64,000 bases of DNA, taken from Candidatus Shapirobacteria bacterium. GTDB lineage: Bacteria > Patescibacteriota > Microgenomatia > UBA12405 > BS750m-G30. Positions 3,986 to 58,625 of this stretch are shown here, piece by piece. Below the pieces are notes generated by a model that searched no databases, was not told where the DNA came from, and saw nothing but the letters and a program-made list of their open reading frames with translations. Within the stretch, counting starts at the first letter, position 1. Each line of letters opens with the position of its first letter. The DNA lies in assembly GCA_016783425.1 (NCBI GenBank), contig JADHWP010000001.1:7272-71271 (forward strand), read 5' to 3'. Position numbers and translations under genes: made by a program.

Positions 3986-4030
3986 TGTCAACCTTAAAGG
4001 TTGAAGATCCAGTAACCTTTAAGGTTGACA
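3986..4030. repeat. Composite REP element: two TGTCAACCTT(T/A)AAGGTTGACA half-copies around a 10-bp insert (agatccagta)
   Basis: Same palindrome family as the copies at 14596, 15369, 19104, 35997 and 38406. Confidence 0.85.
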
Positions 4031-14595: not shown

Positions 14596-14616
14596 AATGC
14601 AAATTGTCAACCTTAA
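14596..14616. repeat. REP element (21-bp perfect palindrome TGTCAACCTTAAAGGTTGACA) flanking the RAYT gene; a partial copy (agtcaacct) follows
   Basis: Exact palindrome; partner copy at 15369 on the other side of the transposase gene. Confidence 0.9.
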
Positions 14617-14652
14617 AGGTTGACAAGCTAGTCAACCTCGGGAGAATGCTAA

Positions 14653-15333
14653 TTATTCCAGGGTTAAATGCTTGATTTGCTCAAGTTCTTTTTGATAATC
14701 TGCTCGGTCAAGTAAAAACTTCTTGTAGTTTTTTAGACCTTGAAAATAAGAAGTAATTGTTTTGGTTTGACAAAATTGATATTGGCTTTTTTCTTTTTCT
14801 AAATAAACAGCCAAAGAAGACCAGGGGTACGAAATTAATTGATCAAAACCTTTAACCATTGCTGCTGAATATGGATTAAGATGAATATATCGCGAAAGAT
14901 GGAGAAGCTGTTGCTCGTTTTCAACTAGCACTGATTTGAAAGTGCTTTGAAATATGGGCCCGACGCGTTCGTGTTTTTTATTAAAATATTTGGTATAGCT
15001 ATTTTGAAGTTGGCTTACAAACCAGGAAACGCCATCATCTTGAGTTTGTTTGACCAAAAGATGAAAGTGATTTGGCATTAGACAGAAGCAGACTATTCCA
15101 ATTAATGTATGATTTTTCTTGTCTAAGGATTGGAGTAGTTTGCCTCTATCCTCTTGACTTAATCGTTTTAATTTGGAGAAACTAAAAGGGAAGTTAGCGA
15201 AGCGATAATATTCCAAAAGCTTGATGAAACGCTGGTAGCCTCTTTTATCCGAGAAAATTGGCCTAAAGTCGATACCGCGATTGTAGATGTGGTAATAGTG
15301 ATCGGTTATTAAAGGGATTTTTCTTCCGGGCAT
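14653..15333 (-). mobile_element. REP-associated tyrosine transposase (RAYT; IS200/IS605-like Y1 HUH transposase)
   Basis: 226 aa; HUH motif (MPNHFHLLV) and catalytic Tyr region (SRYIHLNP); flanked on both sides by REP palindromes, the classic RAYT-REP arrangement. Confidence 0.85.
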
Positions 15334-15368
15334 TTTCTTGTTTATATTTTACCCGAGGTTGCAATAGC

Positions 15369-15389
15369 TGTCAACCTTTAAGGTTGACA
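15369..15389. repeat. REP element (TGTCAACCTTTAAGGTTGACA) flanking the RAYT gene
   Basis: Exact 21-bp palindrome. Confidence 0.9.
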
Positions 15390-16074: not shown

Positions 16075-16653
16075 TTGTTAATGAAATACCTTGAACTGCG
16101 AAAAGAGATTAGCCAAAATCTTTTTACTATTCTTGATGTTGAAAAAAAGTTTTATTCTGAGAAAAAAGATTCCTTGAGAGTCCAACTTTCTCGCTTTATT
16201 CAAAAAGGCCGGTTAATACAACTTAAGCGGGGACTTTATTGCTTTAACCCTGCCAAACTTGACGAGTTTGTTTTGGCCAACCAGCTTTACCAGCCCTCCT
16301 ATATCAGCCTGGAAACGGCCCTGAACTATTACGGGATAATTCCCGATATTTCCCAGAGACTGACCAGCGTCAGCCCGACGACTACTAAAAAAATCAGCAA
16401 TCAATTTGGGATTTTTCATTATGCCAAAATCAAATCAGTTCTTTTTTGGGGTTATACTAAAAAGAGGCTGGATGATAAAGAAAGTTTTTTTCTTATCGCT
16501 CAAAAGGAAAAATCCCTGCTTGACTTTTTTTATTTGCGGAAAATTAAAAAAGTGAAAGATTTGCGCCTGAATTTGGCGGATTTTGATTTTGATCGCTATC
16601 AGCGGTATGTTAAAAATTTTCCCGCCTGGGTTCAAGTGATTAAATTGGCATGA
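16075..16653 (+). CDS. Type IV TA system antitoxin, AbiEi family (transcriptional regulator)
   Basis: 192 aa (alternative ATG at 16081); AbiEi_4-like N-terminal wHTH; immediately precedes and overlaps an AbiEii gene. Confidence 0.7.
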   Translation: MLMKYLELRKEISQNLFTILDVEKKFYSEKKDSLRVQLSRFIQKGRLIQLKRGLYCFNPAKLDEFVLANQLYQPSYISLETALNYYGIIPDISQRLTSVSPTTTKKISNQFGIFHYAKIKSVLFWGYTKKRLDDKESFFLIAQKEKSLLDFFYLRKIKKVKDLRLNLADFDFDRYQRYVKNFPAWVQVIKLA

Positions 16654-17444
16654 ATAACCTAATAACTGATTTTGACCAGATTATTAAATTTGCCCAAGAC
16701 TATCAACTGCCCTTAAACAAAAAGCGGGCGATTTTAAGAGAGTATTTACAGGTTAAAATTTTAGACATTCTCTATCGCCAAAAAAGCTCATCCCAATTGA
16801 TTTTTGTGGGTGGCACTTGTTTGCGGTTAACCAGAAACTTAGATCGCTTCTCAGAAGATCTTGATTTTGATTTAGGTGAAATCAGCTTTAAACAGGCAGA
16901 TTATTTAATAGAACGGACTTTTGACCAGCTTAAAAAAGAAAACATTGTTCTTGATTTTTATCGCAACCAGACCAAAAAGAGAATTTATTGGGAGTTTCGT
17001 TTTAAAAATCTGCTTTTTGAATTAAAAATTGGCCGTGATCTAAGGGAAAAACTAATGATTAAGTTTGATTTTGAGAAAATTTGGCGAAAACACCAAAAAC
17101 AAACAATCTTGCTTAACCGCTATGGCTTTTTGGTGAACATAGTAACCACTCCTTTAAATCAGTTACTGGTGCAAAAATTGACGGCCTATTTAGGGCGATC
17201 CCAAACTCAACCTCGGGATATTTATGATATTGTCTGGCTCATTTCCCAAGGAGCCAAAGTTGACAAGCAGTTTGTTAAAGATAACAAACTGTCTTTGAAT
17301 TTAGTTTCCAGGGCGGTTAAAAAGTTTAACCGTGAAGAAAAAAAGCTAAAGCAATTTAAGCGCCGCCTTCAACCATTCTTGGTAAACGAAAAATACCTTG
17401 ATAAATTAAACCTCTTTCCTCAACTGCTCGAGCAGTTAGGTTAA
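16650..17444 (+). CDS. Type IV TA system toxin, AbiEii/AbiGii nucleotidyltransferase family (DUF1814)
   Basis: 264 aa; FVGGTCLRL...RFSEDLDFD nucleotidyltransferase motif. Confidence 0.75.
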   Translation: MNNLITDFDQIIKFAQDYQLPLNKKRAILREYLQVKILDILYRQKSSSQLIFVGGTCLRLTRNLDRFSEDLDFDLGEISFKQADYLIERTFDQLKKENIVLDFYRNQTKKRIYWEFRFKNLLFELKIGRDLREKLMIKFDFEKIWRKHQKQTILLNRYGFLVNIVTTPLNQLLVQKLTAYLGRSQTQPRDIYDIVWLISQGAKVDKQFVKDNKLSLNLVSRAVKKFNREEKKLKQFKRRLQPFLVNEKYLDKLNLFPQLLEQLG

Positions 17445-18034: not shown

Positions 18035-18517
18035 TTATTTTAACTCTACTTTCGCGCCGGCATCCGTAAGTTTCTTTTGCGCTTCCTGGGCGTCTTCTTT
18101 TTTAGCGTCTACTAAAACTTCAGCGGGTAGTTTTTCAGTCATGTCTTTGGCTTCCTTTAAACCTAGTTCAGGTTTAATTAGCCTTAAGGCTTTAATGACA
18201 TTTATTTTGTTTGCCCCGGCTTCAGTTAGGACGACGGTAAATTGAGTTTTTTCTTCAACCGGAGCAGCTGCATCAGCGCCATTGCCTCCGTTTGCGCTAG
18301 CAGCAGGAGCAGCGGCGATAGCTTGAACTCCAAATTTTTCTTCCAAGCCTTTGACCAGCTCGGATAGTTCTAAAACGGAAAGGCCAGCGACCTGATTCAG
18401 GATTTTGGTTAGTTTCGGATCTAAATTAACTTTAACTTTTTCTTCTTTTTTTTCTTTGCTTTTAGCTTTTAGCTTTTCTCCGCCAGCTGGCGGATTAGCT
18501 TGTTTGTCATTACTCAT
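18035..18517 (-). CDS. rplL: 50S ribosomal protein L7/L12 with N-terminal extension containing an in-frame palindromic insertion
   Basis: 160 aa; conserved [19 protein letters not shown] and C-terminal domain; N-terminal about 30 aa extra, including [10 protein letters not shown] encoded by a 23-bp segment identical to one in nrdH. Confidence 0.85.
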
Positions 18518-19038
18518 TAGTTTTCACCCCCTTTGCTTTCAGTTATTACTTTTAAGGTTAAGATAAATTTTTGCTGATGGTAATTTAAAGCGTAGGCTAA
18601 TCTAAACAGGGGATTGCTTAAGCCCCCAATAAACTGTGCCAGTAGAGTTTCTTTATTGGGCAAAGCGACTAATCTTTCCAACTCGGTTAAAGAAAGTAAT
18701 TTTCCCTGGAAAAGGCCTAGTTTAAATTCCGGTTTTTCAAACCTTTTTTTTGTTTCTGCCACTTTTTTTAAAGGGGCAATTTCGTCTTCATAGGCGACCA
18801 CCAGAGCAGTGGGGCCGGTTAGAGTTTCCGGAAGATCAATGCCTAAAGTTTTTAGGGCAAGCATAAGTAAGGTATTTTTCGCCACGAACATTAAGCCGCC
18901 TTGTTTTTTTATTTGAAAGCGAAGCTCCCGAACCTGCTCCGCAGTTAAGCCTTGGTAGTCAATTAGAGCCGCGCTTTTACCGCCTTCTATTAAGGCTTTT
19001 AAGTTTTCTACTTCGTAAATTTTGCTTTGTTTAACCAT
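18517..19038 (-). CDS. rplJ: 50S ribosomal protein L10
   Basis: Start taken at [10 protein letters not shown] (ATG at 19038); the longer table ORF runs through the REP element and is rejected. Confidence 0.85.
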
Positions 19039-19103
19039 TACTGCCAAGCTCCAAATTACAAATAACAAGTATTCCAAATCACCGCTTCTGGCGGGATCCT
19101 GCT

Positions 19104-19148
19104 TGTCAACCTTAAAGGTTGATGACCCGATAACCTTTAAGGTTGACA
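19104..19148. repeat. Composite REP element (half-copies around a 10-bp insert tgacccgata) in the rplJ leader region
   Basis: Exact reverse complement of the composite copy at 38406. Confidence 0.85.
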
Positions 19149-19152
19149 GCAC

Positions 19153-19180
19153 AAAAAAGCCTCGTTTCCGAGGCTTTTTT
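19153..19180. terminator. Bidirectional-looking hairpin aaaaaagcctcg-tttc-cgaggctttttt
   Basis: 6-bp GC-rich stem flanked by A- and T-tracts. Confidence 0.5.
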
Positions 19181-19389
19181 AACTTTAAGCTTTAAGTTTT
19201 AAGCTAATAAGGTGCCTCGGTAAGATTTTTATTCCCGACGTCACATCGGGGCCTTACGGTCTCGGGCTGTAAGTATAATATCATAGTTTACAATCTTGTC
19301 AAATAAAAAAGCGCCAGGCCTCTCTCTTTTCTTGTTTTTCCAATAGTATTTTATTGACTTTGCCTTGTTTTCCTGCTAGTTTTTAGGTA

Positions 19390-33750: not shown

Positions 33751-35244
33751 ATGGTTGAAAAACATTACCAATTTTACTGGCGAGAACTTGAAAAAAAACA
33801 AGAAGTTTTAATTTCCTCTTTTATTCCTACTTATTTGCAGATGCAACCCTCGCTTCACCCCTTGGCTAATAATCCCCAAAAGGTGGATGGGGGAGCTTTG
33901 AGTTATGCTTTAGGCCGCCTGCCCAACTGTATTGGCCAGGTAGACAGGGTGTTGCTGGGCCAAAGTCGAGGAGATTTTGCCAAAGCGGGTTTTAAAATAA
34001 GCGAAGCCCAGGAAGCGCTAACTAAAGCTCGAAAAAGGCGCTGTTACTTTCTGCCAAACAAGGCTACTTTAGCCTGCTATATTGCTTCAGCAACGGATGT
34101 TGACGATTTGGTTAACGCTTTAATTGCCTACCTTATTGAAAAAAGAAAACAGGGGGAGCAAAAGGAGATTAGTGTTCAACTGCTGGCTGATCATGAAGTG
34201 GGATACCGCCAAATTGCCCAAAGCTGGTGGACGCAAGTAAGAAATAATTTTTTGGCGCTGGGATTGGAAGATAAGCCCCTATATTTTATTTCTTCCAATT
34301 TACACGGGCTGGTAAACATTATTGGCGGTTTTGCGCGCAGTAAGCAGGTGGAGATTTTTGACTATATTCAAAAAAGTCAACCGGAAATGTACCGGGAGTG
34401 GTTAAAAATCGAAAAAGGGGAAAATAAGTTAAGAGTTAATCATTTTCTTTATTATCTTTCCAAGTTGTATTTTGAAACCCACCCCAAAGCCTTTGCCGAA
34501 AAATTAAGGTTTGAAGAGAAAATAGGAATTAAACAGGTAAGATCGGTGGAGGGGTTGGATTGCAACGCTCAGCTCATTCCTGTTTCTTTGCTGGGAACCA
34601 CCCAATCGTTGGATCCCCACTTAAAAGTTAGTTATCCAAGCGAGCTTGCTAAAAGCGAAGCCTTAATTATTAATATTCAGTATCCGTTAGGAATGTCCGC
34701 CTACTATCTTCTTTCCGAGCTTTTGGAAAACCTAAAGCTACTCAAGGGAGTTTACATTATTGGCAAGGCGGCGATTTTAGCGGGACAAGTAGGGGATATT
34801 CAGATTCCGAGCACTGTTTTTGATAAAAATTCGCGGCAAACTTTTTTGTTTCCTAATATTTTTAACCAGAAGTTTCCCTTTGCCTCTTTTCAGGCCAGTA
34901 TCTTAAAAGAGCAAAAAGCAGTATCGGTTAAAGGGACTTTTTTGGAAAACCAAAAGCAGTTGGAAGGCTATAAAGAGGCTAATTTTAATATTGTAGAGAT
35001 GGAATCCGGGCCCTATCTTAAGGCTTTATCTGAATATCAATCTGAAGTTAATTTAGGACCGGAAGGTTATTTTCACCTGGACAATCTTCCTTTGGAATTA
35101 GGGATTATTAATTATGCCTCTGATAATCCTTTTGCCGAGGAAAGTTTAGCCAAAGGAACTTTGGGATTACGGGGGATAGAGTCTACTTACTTAGCGGGCT
35201 TGGCCGTTTTGGAGCGGATTATTCAAAAAGAAGAAATGGCTTGA
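33751..35244 (+). CDS. Hypothetical protein with C-terminal nucleoside phosphorylase (PNP_UDP_1)-like region, possibly AMP-nucleosidase-like
   Basis: 497 aa; C-terminal IVEMESGPYL and GKAAILAG segments recall the phosphorylase superfamily. Confidence 0.4.
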   Translation: MVEKHYQFYWRELEKKQEVLISSFIPTYLQMQPSLHPLANNPQKVDGGALSYALGRLPNCIGQVDRVLLGQSRGDFAKAGFKISEAQEALTKARKRRCYFLPNKATLACYIASATDVDDLVNALIAYLIEKRKQGEQKEISVQLLADHEVGYRQIAQSWWTQVRNNFLALGLEDKPLYFISSNLHGLVNIIGGFARSKQVEIFDYIQKSQPEMYREWLKIEKGENKLRVNHFLYYLSKLYFETHPKAFAEKLRFEEKIGIKQVRSVEGLDCNAQLIPVSLLGTTQSLDPHLKVSYPSELAKSEALIINIQYPLGMSAYYLLSELLENLKLLKGVYIIGKAAILAGQVGDIQIPSTVFDKNSRQTFLFPNIFNQKFPFASFQASILKEQKAVSVKGTFLENQKQLEGYKEANFNIVEMESGPYLKALSEYQSEVNLGPEGYFHLDNLPLELGIINYASDNPFAEESLAKGTLGLRGIESTYLAGLAVLERIIQKEEMA

Positions 35245-36543
35245 GCGGGCTGACTTTTTAAAGCCCAGTTTTTTGAGTATTTTGGTTGTGGTTTGGGGAT
35301 ATTGGCAAATATCTTTAAAAATTATTTTAAGATTTCTTTTTTGACCCCGATGGAGAATAAACCGATAAATTGTTTTTCCGTGCTTTTGTAAGTAGCGCTT
35401 GTGTTTTAAAAAGGTGCCGATAGAGGCCTGCTTTTCTTTCTGGTTGATCATTTTCAAGCCAATATGACCGAGGGGGTGATTATTTTTCGTAATTAGCCAG
35501 TAGGCAAAAGCCGGGTTGTAAATTAAATTATTGAGCCAGGCTTTGATTTGGTCTTTGCTTTTGGGGGTAAAGGTAAAAAGATTCTGTCTTGTTTGGGGTT
35601 TTTTAAATTCTCGTAAATGGAAACGCAAAAGTTTGGAGTCGGGAGAAAAAGGAATAAATTCCAATCCCTGATATTTTATTCGCTTGGTGTTTGGCTTGCT
35701 GATATTAAAAATAAAACCCTCTTTTTTAATTGTTTTTAAACAGGAAGAAAAGCCAAGATTGGTTAATTTTTTTCGTAATCGAGAGATATACTGGTCCAGA
35801 GCATAGTCGGAATATTCATAATTTTCGCCCCAAAGGTGGTGAGCTAGTTTTTCCCGATTGATTATTTTATCCTGATTTTTTGCAAAAATTTCCAGTCCTT
35901 TTTGTTGCTGGAGTGAAAGATGAGAGGTAACTTTTTTAAGATTAACCTCTTTTTCTTGGCCAGGGAAACTTAATTGCAAGTAGTTTTTTAATGCTCTGTC
36001 AACCTTTAAGGTTGACAGAGTGTGATTGGTTTTTTTAATAATTCCGGTTTTAAGCAGATAATCAAGTTCATTTTTTTGGTAAAAAAAAGATTGTAAGTTT
36101 TTTTGGGAGATTTGCTGCAAAATTAGCTGCTGATTTTCAGAAAGGAGGCTAAAAAACAAATTGGGCTTAGACTGGCGGCCAGGATCAGGAAGATAAATTA
36201 GCCGTTTAAGAAAATAGCTCTCTTTAAGCTGGTTATAAAGCCTTTCTTGTTTTAGATTTTGGTCGAAAACCAGAATGATTCTGGCTTGCTTAAAGTTTTT
36301 TTCAAAAGCGCGCTCCAACCTAATTAGAAGTGGCAGGGAGGCTAAATAAAAATTGGGAAAGCTGATAATGCTTAATCGAGAAAAATTAATTTTGTTTAGA
36401 CTCATTTTGCTTTCGATCGTGAACAGTTTGGCCCCGGGCCAAATTTTTCTAAGAGAGGAAATTGGAAACAAGGGAGCGGTAATTAGGGTTTGAAAATGAT
36501 ATTTGGCCAAATTAATTTTGGCCCTCCCAGCCCAGTTGTCCAT
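35191..36543 (-). CDS. Putative regulator: ATPase-like N-region, central OmpR/PhoB-type winged helix, C-terminal GNAT-like domain
   Basis: 450 aa; LEIFAKNQDKIINREKLAHHLWGENYEYSDYALDQYISRLRKKL matches trans_reg_C and is paralogous to the 8716-9687 protein; carries a REP palindrome in frame (LSTLKVD); divergent from repeat copy 1. Confidence 0.6.
   Translation of the reverse strand: MDNWAGRAKINLAKYHFQTLITAPLFPISSLRKIWPGAKLFTIESKMSLNKINFSRLSIISFPNFYLASLPLLIRLERAFEKNFKQARIILVFDQNLKQERLYNQLKESYFLKRLIYLPDPGRQSKPNLFFSLLSENQQLILQQISQKNLQSFFYQKNELDYLLKTGIIKKTNHTLSTLKVDRALKNYLQLSFPGQEKEVNLKKVTSHLSLQQQKGLEIFAKNQDKIINREKLAHHLWGENYEYSDYALDQYISRLRKKLTNLGFSSCLKTIKKEGFIFNISKPNTKRIKYQGLEFIPFSPDSKLLRFHLREFKKPQTRQNLFTFTPKSKDQIKAWLNNLIYNPAFAYWLITKNNHPLGHIGLKMINQKEKQASIGTFLKHKRYLQKHGKTIYRFILHRGQKRNLKIIFKDICQYPQTTTKILKKLGFKKSARSSHFFFLNNPLQNGQAR
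35997..36017. repeat. REP palindrome (TGTCAACCTTTAAGGTTGACA) lying in frame inside the 35191-36543 CDS
   Basis: Exact 21-bp palindrome (7 codons) identical to the intergenic copies. Confidence 0.85.
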
Positions 36544-36559
36544 AGTATTATATTATATC

Positions 36560-36628
36560 CAACTTGTCAGGATTTTGCAAGAGAGGTGTCAAGAAAAATA
36601 AGTCTCTGGACAATATACTATCAGTTAC
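36560..36628 (+). promoter_or_regulatory. Copy 1 of the shared upstream element (TGTCAGGATTTTGCAAGAGAGGTGTCAAGAAAAATAA) with putative promoter TTGCAA-17-ATAAGT
   Basis: Near-identical to copies at 38454 and 40526; 11-bp-phased TGTCAGG/TGCAAGA/TGTCAAG direct repeats. Confidence 0.6.
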
Positions 36629-38392
36629 ATGGGCAGACTGGAAAGAGGGGATTTAACACGGCCACTCCTCGTCATGATATCTGAACCTTCGTTCCATGAG
36701 GGAGAAAAAAGGCTGATTACTGGCCCTGGTGGAATGATTTTTGATATTGAAAGAACAAGGTCGGGTCTAAATGTTTTGAGTCGTCCCCAGCTTGAGGGAG
36801 CTCGTGGAGAACAGCTTTCTTATAATGAATCGAGCGAATCGTTTTCTCTTTTTTTTACTTATTCTAAACAGGGAGAGGGATACGTTCTTAATGAAGGCCA
36901 GGTGACCAACGGAGTTTTTTTCCGGGGCCAAGAACAGTCAGCGGTTATTTTTGCCGAAGTTACCCAAGGAGCTTTCGAGGAAGATGTTTCCTTGGGCGCA
37001 TTTCTCTATTTGCCTCCAAATTCAGTTCCTGATCAAGCGGTAAAAGATCTTTTTGGAGAAACAAGACTTTATGACCCGATAGAGTTAGAAGGAGTTCCTT
37101 TTAATCCCGTGGCTATCGAATTCACTGATTTAGAAGAAATATTTTCGCAGATAATTGACGAAAAATTAGTCGAAAAAATTAAGCCAATAGCCGAGCGGTT
37201 TTTAACTCAAAGAGAAGCGTTTATTGCTTCTCAAGTCAGTTTTCCTTTGGGGGTTGAAAAATTACTTACTGTTTCCGGCGGATCAGAACTTTTTGCTTCA
37301 TTTCCCGCTTTTCTTCTAACCAAGTTAGTCGAGCAGTTCAGAACAAGTGGCGCAGTACACTTATTTCAAGTCGAGAGTGTTTTAAAAACAGTTCTGGCAG
37401 GAGTAAAAGACCAAAAAGAAAAATGGGCCCTAGCCTCTTTTTTTTATAATCTATTTGGCAAAGGGCATTGTTTAGTCAGTAATTATGATCAGTATCAAGG
37501 AGGCGTTTCAGGATTGATAATAGACTTATTGGTAGAAACAGGGACACTTTCTTCTGGTGGAAGCATAGAGGCTATTTGGCGTGAGGGTTTTAGCGGAATG
37601 ACTCAAGCCGCTTTTACTTATTGGCTTGAGAGGCAATGGTTGAAAAGGGAGGAGGAGAGATTATTTACAAAGCAAGCCTTTTTTCATACTCCCCTAAGAG
37701 AGACACACGAGCCCTTGGATGGAGAATTATATGAAAGATGGCTTGATTTAGCTAATAAAGTGGGAAAAAAAGCGAGAAACAACGAAATTAATTGGCCTCA
37801 TTTTGCTAATAAACTGGCGGAACTAGCTTTGATGGGTAAATTTTATCCTGATGGAAATGTCCATTTTTTTCACTGGGGATTTGGCGTAGAAAATAAGAGA
37901 TATGCTGGTGATAGAGGGTTTTTTTCCAGAGAGATTTACCTTTTGACTAATCCTAATGGAGTGAGATTGGTTCTACCTTTGCCGCCGTCAGCCTTTTTGC
38001 CAGCTACTATTGAGATTGATTGGAGCAAAAGTGGAAAAGGGTGGTTAAATCCCGAGCTTTGTTTTTATTGCTGGGTTAAACCCGATGCGCCTTTTGATTA
38101 TAGTCAGGCTACTGCTGTTTCCTTTAATCAGTGGGTGGGGATCGGTGATTTTAAAAACTTTAGGCGGATAAGGCTCCCTTTGGGGCAAAAAAGGGGTGGC
38201 AATGTTGAAGCCTGGATCAGTCAAGGCTGGCAAATAGTTGAACAGTTTAGGGACAATGCAAGTGGCGCGATAATGTTATTGCTTCCTTTTAAAGAGAGGG
38301 AAGGCAAAGTAGCGGTTAATCAATTTTTAGATCTTACTAGTAAAAAGTATCCAGCTGAGCAATATTTTGAGGTTCCGGTAAATATTTATTAG
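36629..38392 (+). CDS. Hypothetical protein (587 aa), downstream of shared element copy 1
   Basis: Long ORF; no recognisable domain. Confidence 0.6.
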   Translation: MGRLERGDLTRPLLVMISEPSFHEGEKRLITGPGGMIFDIERTRSGLNVLSRPQLEGARGEQLSYNESSESFSLFFTYSKQGEGYVLNEGQVTNGVFFRGQEQSAVIFAEVTQGAFEEDVSLGAFLYLPPNSVPDQAVKDLFGETRLYDPIELEGVPFNPVAIEFTDLEEIFSQIIDEKLVEKIKPIAERFLTQREAFIASQVSFPLGVEKLLTVSGGSELFASFPAFLLTKLVEQFRTSGAVHLFQVESVLKTVLAGVKDQKEKWALASFFYNLFGKGHCLVSNYDQYQGGVSGLIIDLLVETGTLSSGGSIEAIWREGFSGMTQAAFTYWLERQWLKREEERLFTKQAFFHTPLRETHEPLDGELYERWLDLANKVGKKARNNEINWPHFANKLAELALMGKFYPDGNVHFFHWGFGVENKRYAGDRGFFSREIYLLTNPNGVRLVLPLPPSAFLPATIEIDWSKSGKGWLNPELCFYCWVKPDAPFDYSQATAVSFNQWVGIGDFKNFRRIRLPLGQKRGGNVEAWISQGWQIVEQFRDNASGAIMLLLPFKEREGKVAVNQFLDLTSKKYPAEQYFEVPVNIY

Positions 38393-38405: not shown

Positions 38406-38450
38406 TGTCAACCTTAAAGGTTATCGGGTCATCAACCTTTAAGGTTGACA
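38406..38450. repeat. Composite REP element (insert tatcgggtca), reverse complement of the 19104 copy
   Basis: Exact match in opposite orientation. Confidence 0.85.
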
Positions 38451-38453
38451 AGT

Positions 38454-38527
38454 ATTTGCCCTGTCAGGATTTTGCAAGAGAGGTGTCAAGAAAAATAAAA
38501 AGAGGTGGTTTACACTATAGGGCAAAT
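38454..38527 (+). promoter_or_regulatory. Copy 2 of the shared upstream element with conserved 5' UTR (AAGAGGTGGTTTACACTATA); inverted repeat ATTTGCCCT/AGGGCAAAT brackets it and overlaps the start codon
   Basis: 66 bp identical to copy 3; the IR arms could form a hairpin sequestering the ATG. Confidence 0.6.
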
Positions 38528-40506: not shown

Positions 40507-40525
40507 TCTAGCATATAGTTTGTCT

Positions 40526-40598
40526 ATTTGCCCTGTCAGGATTTTGCAAGAGAGGTGTCAAGAAAAATAAAAAGAGGTGGTTTACACTATAAGATAAG
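40526..40598 (+). promoter_or_regulatory. Copy 3 of the shared upstream element plus conserved 5' UTR
   Basis: Identical to copy 2 over about 66 bp. Confidence 0.6.
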
Positions 40599-42769: not shown

Positions 42770-44644
42770 ATGAGCAAGAAAAAAATTGATCCGACTGATT
42801 TTATTGAAATTGGCCGGCTTAACGGTGGCGGCCGCAAGCTTATCGTGGATTTGGATGAAATTGGGGAAATTATTGTTTCCAAAGGGAGCAAGGACGATGC
42901 CAATAAAATCAATACCCCCGAGGGTACTTCTTTTTCCTTGTCCGAATATTTAAAAAAAGAGTACGCTTTACACAAGGTTTTTTCAAAAGATGTAGCCGAA
43001 GCTCATCGCAAGGGAGACATTAAACTGCAAAAACTCCAGTTTATTGACCGACCCTATTGTTCCGGTCAGGGGTTGGAGTATATTAAAAAATTTGGCTTAA
43101 CTAAGTACGCTTCTTTTGCGGCGGTCAAGCCGGCCGGCCACATTGACGCTTTAATTGACCACATGATGCGCATGACCATGGCCTTAAGGGCCCATTTTGG
43201 CGGGGCGGTTGGCTGGGATGCGCTTAATATGTATATGGCCCCTTATCTTGGCGGCATGGGGGATCGGGAGATAAGACAAATTGCCCAAAGAATTATTTAC
43301 CAGTTCAACCAAACCGTTGGCCCGCACGGCGGCCAGCCGGTTTTTTCGGATATTAATCTTTATTGGGAGATTCCCGATCATTTTGCCAGGGTGCCGGCGA
43401 TTGGGCCAAGGGGGGAGTTTACCGGCCGAATGTACAAAGATTATGAAAAAGAAGCCCAGGCTTTAGTTTGGCAGCTTTTGAATATTTATAAAAGAGGAGA
43501 CGCTAAAGGCAAGCCTTTTTTCTGGCCCAAACCCAATGTTCATATCACTACCAGGTTTTGGCAAACTCCGGGACACGAGGAATTCTTAGAGCATGTTTGC
43601 GGCGTGGCCGCTAAAATGGGCAATCCCTATTTTATTTTTGACCGCGGTTCAGTGGCTAAAATTTCCGAATGCTGCCGCTTGCAGTTTGAGCTGTCGAAAG
43701 ACGATTTAAAAGAAGCCAAAGAGCCCTGGAAAATGCGCTACGCCGCTTGTCCTTATCTACCCGTAAACTTGCCCCGGGTAGCTTACGAGGCTAATCATGA
43801 TGAAAAAAAGTTTTTCCAAATTTTAGGCGCGCGCCTGGAGCTTTTGACCAAGGCTCATCTTCAAAAAAGCCGATTTTTAAAAAAGCTTTTGGAAATGGGG
43901 CCAACCGGGCCCTTGGGCATGCTGACCTTAACAAGCAACGGGGACAAAGAGCCGTATTTACGATTTGACAAAATGCCCTATATGAATGCGGTTGGCGGGC
44001 TTTCCGATGCGGTTAAGTTTCATCTTGGCAAGGCCCTGCATGAATCAGACGAGGCCTTGAAATTCGGTTTAAGAGTAACTGCTTTTATGAAGAAGAAAAC
44101 AGAAGAAGAAGGTAAAAAGGCGGGTTTAAAAATTCTTCTTGACCAGTCTCCGGCGGAATCAACCATGTATCGGTTTGCCAAAATGGATTTGGCCCAGTTT
44201 CCCAAACAAGCCAGGCAAATTGTTCATGGTGATCTTAAAAGCGGGCAAGTGTATTACACTAACTCTTCTCAAATTGATGTGGATGCATCTTTGGATGTTT
44301 TTGAACGGATTGAACTGGAGGGCCGATTTCATCCTTTAATGCAAGGCGGGGCCTTAACCCATATTTGGCTGGGCGAAAACTTGCCTTCGGCTAAATCTTT
44401 GGCCAGTTTAGTTAAAAAAGTCTTTTTTAAAACCCAGAATACTCAAGTCGCTTTTTCTCCGGAATTTACTTTGTGTTCTGATTGCGAGCAGACCAGCCGG
44501 GGCAAAAGAGAGAGTTGTCCTTTTTGCGGTAGCAAAAAAGTGGACTGGGTCACCCGGATTACCGGCTATTATACTTTTGTGAAGCAGTGGAATAAGGGTA
44601 AACTAGGGGAGTTAAAGGATCGGAAGAAAAACAGGATTAAATAA
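42770..44644 (+). CDS. nrdD: Anaerobic ribonucleoside-triphosphate reductase (class III), paralog 1, no ATP-cone
   Basis: 624 aa; active-site ISECCRL, C-terminal Zn-ribbon CSDCEQ...CPFCG and glycyl-radical motif RITGYY. Confidence 0.85.
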   Translation: MSKKKIDPTDFIEIGRLNGGGRKLIVDLDEIGEIIVSKGSKDDANKINTPEGTSFSLSEYLKKEYALHKVFSKDVAEAHRKGDIKLQKLQFIDRPYCSGQGLEYIKKFGLTKYASFAAVKPAGHIDALIDHMMRMTMALRAHFGGAVGWDALNMYMAPYLGGMGDREIRQIAQRIIYQFNQTVGPHGGQPVFSDINLYWEIPDHFARVPAIGPRGEFTGRMYKDYEKEAQALVWQLLNIYKRGDAKGKPFFWPKPNVHITTRFWQTPGHEEFLEHVCGVAAKMGNPYFIFDRGSVAKISECCRLQFELSKDDLKEAKEPWKMRYAACPYLPVNLPRVAYEANHDEKKFFQILGARLELLTKAHLQKSRFLKKLLEMGPTGPLGMLTLTSNGDKEPYLRFDKMPYMNAVGGLSDAVKFHLGKALHESDEALKFGLRVTAFMKKKTEEEGKKAGLKILLDQSPAESTMYRFAKMDLAQFPKQARQIVHGDLKSGQVYYTNSSQIDVDASLDVFERIELEGRFHPLMQGGALTHIWLGENLPSAKSLASLVKKVFFKTQNTQVAFSPEFTLCSDCEQTSRGKRESCPFCGSKKVDWVTRITGYYTFVKQWNKGKLGELKDRKKNRIK

Positions 44645-46809
44645 TGCCCAGCGAAATCAGCAAATACAATAATGGCAATGGCAATGGTAATGGCTTAACG
44701 ACCAAGCAGGCCAAATACCTAGAGGGCGCCAAAAAACATGGGGCAACGGATACAATGTTCTTTGTTTCTACTTCAGACGAGGCTTTAAAAGAGTGGGATG
44801 TAACCCAAATTGCCAAGCGCTTGATTATTGAAACGGGTATGGGAGAAAAGTTGGCAATGAGGATTGCCAAGGTGGTAGAGGAGAAGATTTTGGCGGCCAA
44901 GCTAAAACATGTTTCTACTAACCTTATTCGGGAATTAACCAATGCCGAGCTTCTTTTCCGGGGATTGGAAAAATATTATGACAAGCATGTGCGCTTAGGA
45001 GTGCCCATTTATGATGTTCACCAGATGCTCACCGAACAAAACAGAATTAATGCCAATGTGCCTCATAATACCGAAGCCACTAATTTGGCTTTAGCCCGGA
45101 ATATTAAAAAAGAGTATGCCTTGCGCCGGGTTTTTTCTAAAGACGTCGCTCAAGCTCATGCCAAGGGTGATCTTCACCTTCACGATTTGGATTTTGTGGA
45201 TCGGCCCTATTGTTGTGGGCAGTCAATTGAGTATGTAAAGAAATATGGCCTGGATATTGCCTCCAGTTTGGCGGTAGCCAAGCCAGCCAAATATGCCACT
45301 ACTTTGGTATTGCAGATAATTAAATTGGCTTCGATGCTCCAGGTTCATTTTGCGGGGGCGATTGGCTTTGATGCCGTTAATCTTTTTCTGGCTCCTTATT
45401 TAACTGGTTTTGGCAAAAAAGAATTAAAGCAATTGGCTCAAACTCTTCTTTTTGAATTTAATATGCAAAATATAGCCCGGGGCGGACAGGCGATTTTTTC
45501 GGACATTAATCTTTATTGGGAAGTGCCTGATCATTTTGCCGATACCCCGGCAATTGGGCCGGGGGGTAAATATACGGGTAAAAAATATCAGGATTATCAA
45601 AAAGAATCGCAAGAATTTGTTAAAGCCATTTTTGAGGTGTATTTAGAGGGAGACGGAGCGGGACGGCCTTTTTTCTGGCCTAAGCCTAATTTACATATCA
45701 CCGAGAAATTTTGGCAAACTCCGGGTCATCAAGGGTTTTTGCATCTGGCTTCTAAAGTAGCGGCCATTCGGGGCAATACTTATTTTGTTTTAGACCGGGG
45801 AGGCACAGCCCGAATCTCCGAATGCTGCCGACTGGCCTTTAATCTTAAAAAATCCGACCTTGAAGATGCTAAAAAGCCCTGGAAAATGCGTTACAGCGCG
45901 ATGCAGAATGTTTCTTTGAATTTGCCCCGTATGGCTTACAAAGCCAAGGGAAGGACTGATAAGTTATTTGAGGAAATTGAGCGGGGGATGGAGCTGTTGG
46001 CCAAGGCTCACCAACAAAAGAGGCGGTTTATCAAAAGACTTTTAGATATGGGCCTGCAAGGGCCCTTGGCCGCGCTGACTACCCGCCAGCTGGATGATAA
46101 TGAATCTTACTACCGCTTTGATAAGGCCAAGTTTTTAGTTGGTGTTTTTGGGGTTAACGAAACGGTTGAGTATTGCCTGGGAAAGCAGATGCACGAAAGC
46201 GATCAAGCGCTTAAACTGGGCCTAAAGATTGTTTCCCAAATGAAGAAAAAAGCGGAAATTTTAAGTAAGCGGGATAAAATGGAGTATGTTTTGGAGCAAA
46301 CTCCAGCGGAAGGGTTAACTTACCGTTTTGCTAAATTAGATAAGCGCTTTTATCCCAAAGAGGCCAAAAAAGTGATTAAGGGTAATTGGGAGGAAGATTA
46401 TATTTACTACACCAATTCCACCCAGCTTAATGTGTCCGAACCTATTGACCCTATTGAAAGAGTAACTAAAGAAGGTCTTTTTCATCCTCTAATTGACGCT
46501 GGAGCAATCAGCCATATTTGGCTCGGGGAGCAAAATCCGGATCCAAAGGCGATTGCCAGTTTTGTGAAAAAAACCTTTGATCACACCCAAAACGGCTTAA
46601 TTGCTTTTTCCCCCGAGTTTACGATTTGTGATTCTTGTATGGCAACCAGCCGGGGACTAAAAGATAACTGCCCCAAATGCGGTTCTGAAGAGGTAGACGG
46701 AGTTACTCGAGTGACTGGTTTTTATTCTCGCGTTAGCCGTTGGAATAAAGGAAAAATAGGCGAGCTAAAAGATCGGTATCGAAACGCGGGAAAGTTTCGT
46801 GATTCGTAA
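44644..46809 (+). CDS. nrdD: Anaerobic ribonucleoside-triphosphate reductase (class III), paralog 2, with N-terminal ATP-cone-like domain and NGNGNGNG repeat
   Basis: 721 aa; same motifs (ISECCRL; CDSCM...CPKCG; RVTGFY) plus an about 100-aa N-terminal ATP-cone-like region; tandem aatggc repeats at 44680-44703. Confidence 0.85.
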   Translation: MPSEISKYNNGNGNGNGLTTKQAKYLEGAKKHGATDTMFFVSTSDEALKEWDVTQIAKRLIIETGMGEKLAMRIAKVVEEKILAAKLKHVSTNLIRELTNAELLFRGLEKYYDKHVRLGVPIYDVHQMLTEQNRINANVPHNTEATNLALARNIKKEYALRRVFSKDVAQAHAKGDLHLHDLDFVDRPYCCGQSIEYVKKYGLDIASSLAVAKPAKYATTLVLQIIKLASMLQVHFAGAIGFDAVNLFLAPYLTGFGKKELKQLAQTLLFEFNMQNIARGGQAIFSDINLYWEVPDHFADTPAIGPGGKYTGKKYQDYQKESQEFVKAIFEVYLEGDGAGRPFFWPKPNLHITEKFWQTPGHQGFLHLASKVAAIRGNTYFVLDRGGTARISECCRLAFNLKKSDLEDAKKPWKMRYSAMQNVSLNLPRMAYKAKGRTDKLFEEIERGMELLAKAHQQKRRFIKRLLDMGLQGPLAALTTRQLDDNESYYRFDKAKFLVGVFGVNETVEYCLGKQMHESDQALKLGLKIVSQMKKKAEILSKRDKMEYVLEQTPAEGLTYRFAKLDKRFYPKEAKKVIKGNWEEDYIYYTNSTQLNVSEPIDPIERVTKEGLFHPLIDAGAISHIWLGEQNPDPKAIASFVKKTFDHTQNGLIAFSPEFTICDSCMATSRGLKDNCPKCGSEEVDGVTRVTGFYSRVSRWNKGKIGELKDRYRNAGKFRDS

Positions 46810-56291: not shown

Positions 56292-56368
56292 TGGAGCCTG
56301 GAGTGGGATTCGAACCCACGACCTCGAACTTACCAAGTTCGCGCTCTTGCCGACTGAGCTATCCAGGC
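56292..56368 (-). tRNA. tRNA-Thr (anticodon GGT)
   Basis: Reverse complement folds: acceptor gcctgga/tccaggc, anticodon loop ttggtaa, GTTCGAATC T-loop, CCA encoded. Confidence 0.85.
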
Positions 56369-56395: not shown

Positions 56396-56434
56396 CCCGC
56401 CTGCCAAAGCTTGAGCTTGGCGATTGCGGGCAGG
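56396..56434. repeat. 39-bp element (internally palindromic), inverted-repeat partner of 58238-58277; 38/39 identity
   Basis: cccgcctgccaaagcttgagcttggcgattgcgggcagg versus the reverse complement at 58238-58277. Confidence 0.8.
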
Positions 56435-57999: not shown

Positions 58000-58625
58000 T
58001 TGTCATGCTAAATCTGTTTCAGCACTTTTTAGTGAGATTATTTCAAAAGTCATTCTGATCCCGACGTTACGTCGGGAGAAGAATCTAGCGAAGCCAGGTG
58101 CAACACTGTACCTGGCGAAGCGCAAACACGCTCCCCCGACTAACGTCGGGATTGCTAGATCCCTCCCTCGCCTGCTGGCGGGTCGGGATGACAACCGGGC
58201 CGTCATTCTGACAAATTAACAACCGTCATGCTGAATTCCTGCCCGCAATCGCTAAGCTCAAGCTTTGGCAGGCGGGGTATTTCAGCATCGATCCTGAAAC
58301 AAGTTCAGGATGACGCTAGGCGAGTTCAGAGCCTGCCCCGAATTCATTTCGGGGATGACACTTGGCGTGGGCAGTTCAGATGTCAAAAAAGGGTGACAAT
58401 TGAGACGTTAAGCTACAATTCTAACTGGCGGTGTGCTTTCGAAAAAATTCGAACTGATTTCGCCCAAAATTTGTAGGGCGGGCGGAATTTCCCCCAGATC
58501 CCCCTTCCGCCCGCCGCACCTGTCCGCCTCTGGCGGAGAAGCGACCCTTTCGGATTGGACGATTTCAAGTTTTTCGTTCCGCTATAAGCGGAACTCTGGG
58601 CTTCGCCCAGTTTGGCGGCAAATTC
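58000..58625. other. ORF-free, GC-rich region densely packed with short and long-range inverted repeats (candidate large structured RNA or nest of palindromic elements)
   Basis: More than 10 hairpins; contains IR partner 58238-58277. Confidence 0.4.
58238..58277. repeat. Inverted-repeat partner of 56396-56434
   Basis: Reverse complement matches 38/39. Confidence 0.8.

Follow-up and report, generated by a model that had tools for sequence, protein, structure and literature searches.

The stretch of Candidatus Shapirobacteria DNA that we analysed (the window: 64,000 nt, JADHWP010000001.1 positions 7,272-71,271 of the forward strand, on which all coordinates are based) carries a gene for a Y1 HUH enzyme of 226 residues at 14653..15333 on the minus strand, bracketed by palindromic repeats that recur elsewhere in the window. 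We consider it probable that this locus is a REPtron/TIRtron, that is, a single-copy, probably domesticated Y1 HUH gene lying between inverted 38-nt repeats of the half-site GTCAACCT, whose short derivatives have been copied to other positions. The derivatives take two forms, a perfect palindrome of 21-23 bp and a 45-bp doublet that folds as a hairpin with a 17-bp stem. With contigs from further assemblies of this organism, the window could be lengthened by 7.1 kb and 8.8 kb, giving a coverage of about 80 kb of the genome, for which the copy number of the palindrome is known.

The enzyme and its bracketing repeats

The protein contains the HUH histidines in the motif MPNHFHLL (H89-F-H91), a GPIFQ segment, the putative catalytic tyrosine Tyr149 in YIHLNP, and a tail with YPWSS. 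Across 41 homologs there is no variation at H89, H91, Y149, N153, or P154, and the Pfam family Y1_Tnp matches at 34.9 bits. The original prediction of an HUH/Tyr protein bracketed by the palindrome is borne out. The AlphaFold (AF2) model has a pLDDT of 90.9 and predicts a helical tail (residues 160-225), which stops short of the GNxxF-type segment present in a Pseudomonas aeruginosa member of the family. When the fold is compared with the PDB using Foldseek, the best match is 4ER8, the Escherichia coli TnpA-REP bound to its repetitive extragenic palindromic (REP) hairpin (E 5.9e-6, TMt 0.68), ahead of the transposases of IS608 and ISDra2, whose matches at E 5.6e-4 to 2e-3 are about 100-fold weaker. 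A profile search of the PDB sequences was ambiguous (ISDra2 0.015, 4ER8 0.019), an ambiguity that the fold search resolved, and a single-sequence search of the PDB returned nothing relevant.

The motif set NHFH / FQ / YIHLNP / YPWSS and the length of 226 residues match TnpA-Y1 subclass 2.1 (PMC6006769 Table 1), which is described by NHVH or NH[YF]H, W[EQ] or FQ, YIELNP or Y[IV]HLNP, an SS proximal tail, and a median length of 238; the Y-x-x-x-N-P context of the tyrosine is the signature of class 2 TnpA-Y1 enzymes (PMC6006769). Subclass 2.1 corresponds to Group 1 of the REP-associated tyrosine transposases (RAYTs; PMC5581495) and to most of the TIRYTs (Di Nocera et al. 2013, PMC3733652). By its motifs, then, the protein belongs to subclass 2.1 / RAYT Group 1 / TIRYT and is not a canonical GTAG-REP RAYT, an assignment made from motifs and best matches rather than from a tree or a subclass hidden Markov model. 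In the plasmid collection, the closest protein is a “transposase” of P. aeruginosa (28.7% identity, E 1e-14) with the motifs NHVH, WE, YIELNP, and YPWSS, and the terminal inverted repeats (TIRs) of that plasmid locus contain GGGGACAG, the published TIRYT consensus. No Pfam match at E<=0.1 was obtained in our protein for a distal helix-turn-helix (HTH) domain (Bac_DnaA_C, HTH_23, HTH_28); subgroup 2.1.2 is heterogeneous for a distal HTH-like domain (PMC6006769).

We do not class the protein as an ordinary IS200 TnpA, because the NCBIfam IS200 model (NF033573) does not match it, its tyrosine context is Y-x-x-x-N-P and not Y-x-x-x-Q, no tnpB partner lies beside the gene (the neighbours encode a 2-Hacid_dh protein and a Gly-rich protein), and each assembly that carries the gene has a single locus. 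Its earlier description as a RAYT therefore stands in so far as the protein does not group with IS200 TnpA and is closest in fold to 4ER8, and needs qualifying in so far as both its score against the RAYT model (52 bits against a cut-off of 80) and the missing tag at the foot of its repeats set it apart from the canonical GTAG-REP enzymes.

In gene orientation, the upstream TIR (15352..15389, minus strand) consists of the palindrome at 15369-15389, the 5-nt spacer GCTAT, and a third half-site, TGCAACCTCGGG, and ends 19 nt before the ATG. The downstream TIR (14605..14642, minus strand) begins 11 nt past the stop codon and reads CCCGAGGTTGAC-TAGCT followed by the palindrome at 14605-14625, which places the start of the left flanking copy at 14605 and not, as first reported, at 14596. 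The two 38-nt repeats align with a score of 59 against a shuffle maximum of 22, and together with the gene they form a unit of about 785 bp. With its three half-sites, the downstream TIR is able to form either of two overlapping hairpins (fold in single-stranded DNA (ssDNA) -9.4 kcal/mol, z -3.9) and is called terminator-like on the minus strand.

We compared the geometry of the bracket across eight loci (W, which is the window, L012, L014, L016, L023, L024, L025, and L033), whose proteins are 50-66% identical. The same layout is found in all eight, and in most of them the inner ends of the TIRs lie about 19 nt before the ATG and 1-11 nt past the stop. The half-site itself varies by lineage (CAACCT...AGGTTG, CCACCT...AGGTGG, AACCCC...GGGGTT), as a co-evolving enzyme–substrate pair would predict. 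The module is also found without the gene, in L008 and L022 and, at a distance of 7 kb, in L014. At two of the relatives (L012 9947-9963, L033 55-75), the upstream palindrome runs into the preceding gene, rnc (RNase III), at its 3′ end and supplies its last codons and stop; L012 reads ...LNLKG*, and in L033 the TAA is at the centre of the palindrome.

Dispersal of the repeats was assessed by scanning for the pattern TGTCAACCTTWAAGGTTGACA with up to two mismatches, which gave six matches in the window, the number originally predicted, against 0.00 expected from 100 dinucleotide-preserving shuffles; the 8-nt half-site occurs 13 times in the window against 0.93 expected. Three of the copies are simple perfect 21-bp palindromes (14605-14625, 15369-15389, 35997-36017) and three are composite 45-bp doublets (3986-4030, 19104-19148, 38406-38450). 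A seventh site, an identical 45-mer, lies 3.6 kb beyond the end of the window (L030 5994-6038), and there is no copy in the 7.1 kb upstream of the window. The palindrome is thus found at seven sites in about 80 kb, five of which do not flank the gene. Neither of the two outcomes that the original prediction named as refuting it, a grouping with ordinary IS200 TnpA or a palindrome confined to this locus, was observed.

The doublet consists of two perfectly complementary 17-nt arms, each with the core AACCTTWAAGGTT, and an 11-nt loop; it is 24 bp longer than the simple form and is not, as had been supposed, a palindrome split by a 10-bp insert. The 19104 and 38406 doublets are reverse complements over all 45 nt, as the original prediction stated, and with the L030 copy there are three 45-mers that are 100% identical, in both orientations, the copy at 3986 being 41/45 identical to that at 19104. 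Among these three, the loops too are identical between opposite orientations. The simple copies are perfect 21/21 palindromes with 10-1-10 symmetry, the copies read YTGTCAACC...GGTTGACAR with TTGACA facing outwards at each end, and every form can be viewed as half-sites in alternation, set 3 and 6 nt apart. The identity of the 45-mers and the perfection of the simple palindromes suggest recent copying or active maintenance. Beside the 3986 and L030 copies, the inner-TIR motif TCGGG(G)AG is kept, which ties the dispersed elements to the ends of the gene. A 12-nt inner-TIR match at 17207-17218, inside the AbiEii gene, is compatible with chance (about 1.5 expected by our own estimate), and we set it aside.

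As ssDNA, the simple palindromes fold with -12.3 and -12.8 kcal/mol and the doublets with -16.8 to -18.6 kcal/mol as a single hairpin with a 17-bp stem, the z-scores being -7 to -9 for the palindrome forms (-8 to -9 for the doublets). In having inverted repeats, a short spacer, one long hairpin, and several copies of the whole unit, the doublet resembles a REPIN (Bertels & Rainey 2011), with the caveat that each of its halves is itself palindromic.

The upstream TIR also appears to carry part of the promoter of the gene. The predicted promoter, TTGACA-17-TAAAAT, matches the consensus at 11/12 positions; its -35 box (15374-15369) lies inside the TIR and its -10-like hexamer TAAAAT is at 15346..15351 (minus strand). 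In five out of seven loci there is likewise a TIR-borne TTGACA that is separated by 17 nt from a -10-like hexamer, and the upstream layout with the promoter is also seen in L012, L014, and L033. In five loci, the -10 ends only 6-12 nt before the ATG (12 nt in the window), which leaves no room for a Shine-Dalgarno sequence and suggests that the mRNA would be leaderless or nearly so. Promoter scans around the other copies found none that uses the TTGACA of the palindrome as a -35. The idea of the palindrome as a portable promoter was accordingly dropped, since its -35 serves the Y1 gene only, and we do not claim a general promoter role for it.

Proposed mechanism and competing explanations

The mechanism that we propose is modelled on E. 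coli TnpA-REP and on the IS608/ISDra2 TnpA enzymes (PMC3479197, PMC8266576). The palindromes would extrude as hairpins in ssDNA, for example on the lagging-strand template, and the enzyme would recognise the hairpin together with adjacent sequence, possibly the conserved CCTCGGG motif. Tyr149 would then cut the strand and form a 5′-phosphotyrosine link, the metal being bound by the HUH histidines, and rejoining of the strands would leave a small element excised or copied to a new site. The -35 box of the Y1 gene's predicted promoter lies in the upstream repeat, so that binding of the enzyme there could also autoregulate the gene.

A number of observations weigh against this interpretation. There is no enzymatic evidence for subclass 2.1, and Quentin et al. 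(2018, PMC6006769) report no REP-like sequences near subclass 2.1 genes. The only NCBIfam match of the protein, REP_Tyr_transpos (NF047646), scores 52.1 bits, under its cut-off of 80 (the relatives P0057, P0077, and P0024 also fall below it, at 46-54 bits), and the GT[AG]G tag was found at neither foot of any copy of the palindrome. Among the strains compared, no copy showed presence/absence polymorphism, which gives no sign of current mobility. A search for the exact 19-mer in GTDB representative genomes and JGI metagenomes, neither of which includes the source genome, gave sporadic matches only (L008, L020, L022). Finally, homologs occur in at least six contexts (2-Hacid_dh, rnc/rpsP, prfA/secA, nusA/uvrC, Bro-N/TGT, MgsA), which would also fit movement of the element as a whole.

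That last possibility is the strongest of the alternatives, although we regard it as unlikely: the TIR-gene-TIR unit would be an autonomous insertion sequence (IS) that moves whole, and the dispersed palindromes would be its solo ends or remnants of the kind of miniature inverted-repeat transposable elements. The TIRs do sit tight on the gene with conserved spacing at 8/8 loci, homologs are found in different contexts, and Bertels et al. (2017, PMC5581495) describe Group 1 as the RAYT group that most resembles an IS. Against this, there is one gene copy at each locus and in every assembly that carries the gene, the exact protein is found on 10 contigs and always in the same genomic context, and the protein sequences of the relatives diverge by 34-50%, none of them being a near-identical copy. 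The most replicated unit is the 45-bp doublet and not the gene. Moreover, L014 (61% identity) shares the context of the window (2-Hacid_dh, pth, rplJL), while L012 and L033 (63% and 66%) share another (rnc/rpsP), and a context common within such pairs suggests long residence. Taken together, the contexts fit long residence with occasional relocation.

We think it less likely still that the palindromes are host regulatory sites acting on double-stranded DNA or RNA (an operator for a dimeric regulator, a portable -35, or a terminator or RNA-stability hairpin), that they spread or are kept because of this role, and that the Y1 gene is merely one of the genes they regulate. The perfect 10-1-10 palindrome with TTGACA outwards at each end is operator-like in its symmetry; one copy supplies the -35 of a promoter that matches at 11/12 positions and is conserved in relatives, the copy after the Y1 gene is terminator-like, and mreB and rplJ each have a copy in front of them, the latter within its leader. 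Such a role is hard to reconcile with the lack of a promoter match at any other copy, with the copy inside a coding sequence, and with doublets that have identical 11-nt loops in both orientations, and a host regulon would not predict a bracket with covarying half-sites in 8/8 relatives. A secondary regulatory role of the palindromes is nevertheless compatible with a REPtron/TIRtron. It is very improbable that the enzyme is now inactive or serves another ssDNA function and that the palindromes are fossils of past activity, for although no copy polymorphism is seen among strain variants or samples and the function of subclass 2.1 is not established in PMC6006769, the catalytic residues are invariant in the 41 homologs and the three identical 45-mers and perfect 21/21 simple copies argue for recent copying or active maintenance.

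Beyond the REPtron/TIRtron at this locus, we tentatively raise the wider possibility, which we think may well not hold, of a large, Patescibacteria-wide clade of subclass-2.1-like Y1 enzymes that has long co-evolved with a cognate hairpin module and mobilises REP/REPIN-like elements. The module would comprise alternating half-sites of AACC..GGTT type, spaced at 3 and 6 nt. It would lie 19 nt ahead of the ATG and 1-11 nt downstream of the stop, and its DNA would be conserved over a protein divergence of about 40-50%. Were this so, a branch reported as lacking REPs would in fact mobilise REP/REPIN-like elements, intragenomic replicators would persist in genomes thought to be under strong reduction, and the outward TTGACA boxes on every copy could serve as mobile promoter or regulatory parts. 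These enzymes form a very large family. Our homolog search gave more than 7,900 matches at E<=0.001 among the 8,000 candidates examined, and a representative library clustered at 50% identity contains 456 clusters at E<=1e-30, the number rising to 8,345 at E<=1e-10. Such enzymes are therefore very common in metagenomes of the candidate phyla radiation (CPR), and the presence of one in a reduced-genome lineage is not the rarity that it had been taken for.

To our knowledge, nearly all RAYT/REP systems characterised so far are from Proteobacteria, and we know of no DNA substrate for Group 1/subclass 2.1, the largest RAYT branch. The present locus and its relatives pair such an enzyme with a well-defined hairpin (the 21-bp palindrome and the 45-bp doublet), which makes a simple candidate substrate for biochemistry. 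They also indicate that small CPR genomes tolerate a self-copying palindrome family, including one copy in a gene and one in the rplJ leader.

Dispersed copies and their surroundings

The doublet at 3986..4030 (plus strand), a REPIN-like hairpin with the loop GAAGATCCAGT (ssDNA fold -16.8 kcal/mol, z -8.2), lies in a divergent intergenic region upstream of mreB (4122), and its 3′ flank keeps the inner-TIR motif as CTCGGGAG. The doublet at 19104..19148 (plus strand; loop GATGACCCGAT; -18.6 kcal/mol, z -9.3) is in the predicted 5′ leader of rplJ, in agreement with the original prediction. The automatic call for this gene (18517-19152, minus strand; 211 aa with a GTG start) reads through the repeat and is 38 codons too long: as the Pfam match to L10 covers the called protein only from residue 39 onwards, we place the real start at the ATG at 19038 (coding sequence 18517..19038, minus strand), with the doublet 66-110 nt upstream of it. 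A near-consensus predicted promoter (19302 to 19275, 11/12) lies upstream of the repeat, and between the two is a bidirectional terminator-like hairpin at 19150-19185, AAAAAAGCCTCG-TTTC-CGAGGCTTTTTT, which may be an attenuator. The Rfam scan found tRNAs only, with no L10 leader and no other family at the repeat sites.

The third doublet of the window (38406..38450, minus strand; -17.6 kcal/mol, z -8.9) is 14 bp past the stop of the open reading frame (ORF) at 36629..38392 and abuts a 67-nt promoter-like repeat. This 67-nt sequence is directly repeated upstream of three successive genes (36556-36622, 38453-38519, 40525-40591), two of the copies being 100% identical and one 73%; within it are TTGCAA...TAAAAA, spaced like a promoter, the ribosome-binding site AAAGAGG, and the GTG with which the gene at 38505 starts.

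The simple palindrome at 35997..36017 (21 bp, or 23 bp with the flanking C/G; given no strand) is placed in frame within a regulator gene (ORF 35191..36543, minus strand), where it encodes LSTLKVD, both as originally predicted. The product is a regulator of 450 residues with a winged helix (Trans_reg_C, residues 209-279) and a GNAT domain (residues 324-428), and the palindrome-encoded residues form part of the linker preceding the winged helix. All three near-identical strain variants keep the palindrome, which is absent from the orthologs P0122 (63% identity) and P0123 (47%), both full-length across the site. The expectation that orthologs would lack exactly the seven codons was not realised, as P0122 is 3 codons shorter and P0123 3 codons longer at this point. 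A clean 21-bp insertion is therefore not supported, since the orthologs differ by about 9 nt, not 21 nt, in a linker of variable length, and the strain variants, all of which keep the copy, offer no empty site. Judged from these alignments, the in-gene palindrome is specific to this lineage, in frame, and tolerated by a real gene.

Short-read contigs of the same organism end at the doublets (L028/L029 at 3985, L031 at the L030 copy), and the contigs L003/L005 begin inside the loop of the 19104 doublet. Breaks located exactly at doublets are explained by the behaviour of repeats in an assembly graph; the doublets thus fragment metagenome-assembled genomes of CPR bacteria, and it is likely that the copy count in draft genomes is underestimated. 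In practical terms, the repeats both break short-read assemblies and mislead start-codon calls, as the 38 additional codons of rplJ illustrate.

Other features of the region are recorded here for completeness. AbiEi/AbiEii toxin-antitoxin-like pairs and a PhdYeFM antitoxin (16075-17444; also beyond 25 kb, at L001 1-677) are found near the Y1 gene and near a ribosomal protein cluster (rplK, rplA, rplJ, rplL, nusG). A 39-nt inverted repeat, 97% complementary (56396-56434 / 58238-58276), encloses about 1.8 kb beside a tRNA gene (56295-56368) and has a weaker inverted pair (56587/57797) nested within it; this segment may be another mobile or invertible element. Several direct repeats between 43328-44376 and 45481-46529, about 72% identical at a constant spacing of 2153 bp, point to two tandem paralogous genes.

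Comparison with known systems

A RAYT/TIRYT enzyme with REP-like repeats is a known kind of system; what is without a published description that we could find is its occurrence in this host lineage, our search of the literature on RAYT, REP, or tyrosine transposases together with Patescibacteria or CPR having found no description of such a system. The closest counterparts are the TIRtrons and their TIRYT enzymes. These have the motif set NH[YF]H / FQ / Y[IV]HLNP / SS-tail in about 230 residues with a C-terminal tail, and, as in the roughly 80 kb covered here, partly self-complementary TIRs bracket a gene of low copy number and belong to a moderately abundant repeat family; self-complementary, moderately repeated TIR families, found as singles and dimers, have been described around TIRYT genes (PMC3733652). 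For Group 1, modest frequencies of flanking 16-mers, 12 per replicon, have been reported (Bertels et al. 2017, PMC5581495). The present locus differs from the TIRYTs in that its TIR departs from the GGGGWSAS consensus (GTTGACAG matches at 6/8), which the P. aeruginosa plasmid member fits; other TIRs unrelated to that consensus exist (PMC3733652). It differs also in that no distal HTH was detected, in that a promoter is embedded in the TIR, and in its CPR/Patescibacteria host, three CPR taxon terms being absent from PMC6006769. In contrast to subclass 2.1 as described by Quentin et al., REP-like sequences are obvious here.

The E. coli-type REPtron (4ER8; PMC3479197, PMC8266576, PMC3116915) provides the best structural match and has the same Y-x-x-x-N-P context; it too is a single gene between inverted cognate palindromes, with dispersed singlets and inverted doublets that fold as long hairpins. 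The two enzymes are only about 15% identical, however, and ours is 60 residues longer and below the NCBIfam equivalog cut-off, while its repeats are perfect palindromes with neither a bulge nor the GT[AG]G foot read by the E. coli-type enzymes. The IS200/IS605 TnpA enzymes (IS608, ISDra2; subclass 1.1) have in common with it the HUH/Y1 fold and a presumed recognition of ssDNA hairpins; their Y-x-x-x-Q context, distinct left and right subterminal hairpins, high-copy near-identical elements, and frequent tnpB are all missing here.

The in-frame repeat inside a gene, which the original prediction singled out as notable, has precedents, as REPs inside genes have been described and in-frame palindromic elements in Rickettsia are cited (PMC3733652). 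Like the copy in our regulator gene, the Rickettsia palindromic elements are short palindromes in frame within an intact gene; they are described for Rickettsia only (PMC3733652), whereas the intragenic unit here is 21 bp and identical to a copy that flanks the transposase.

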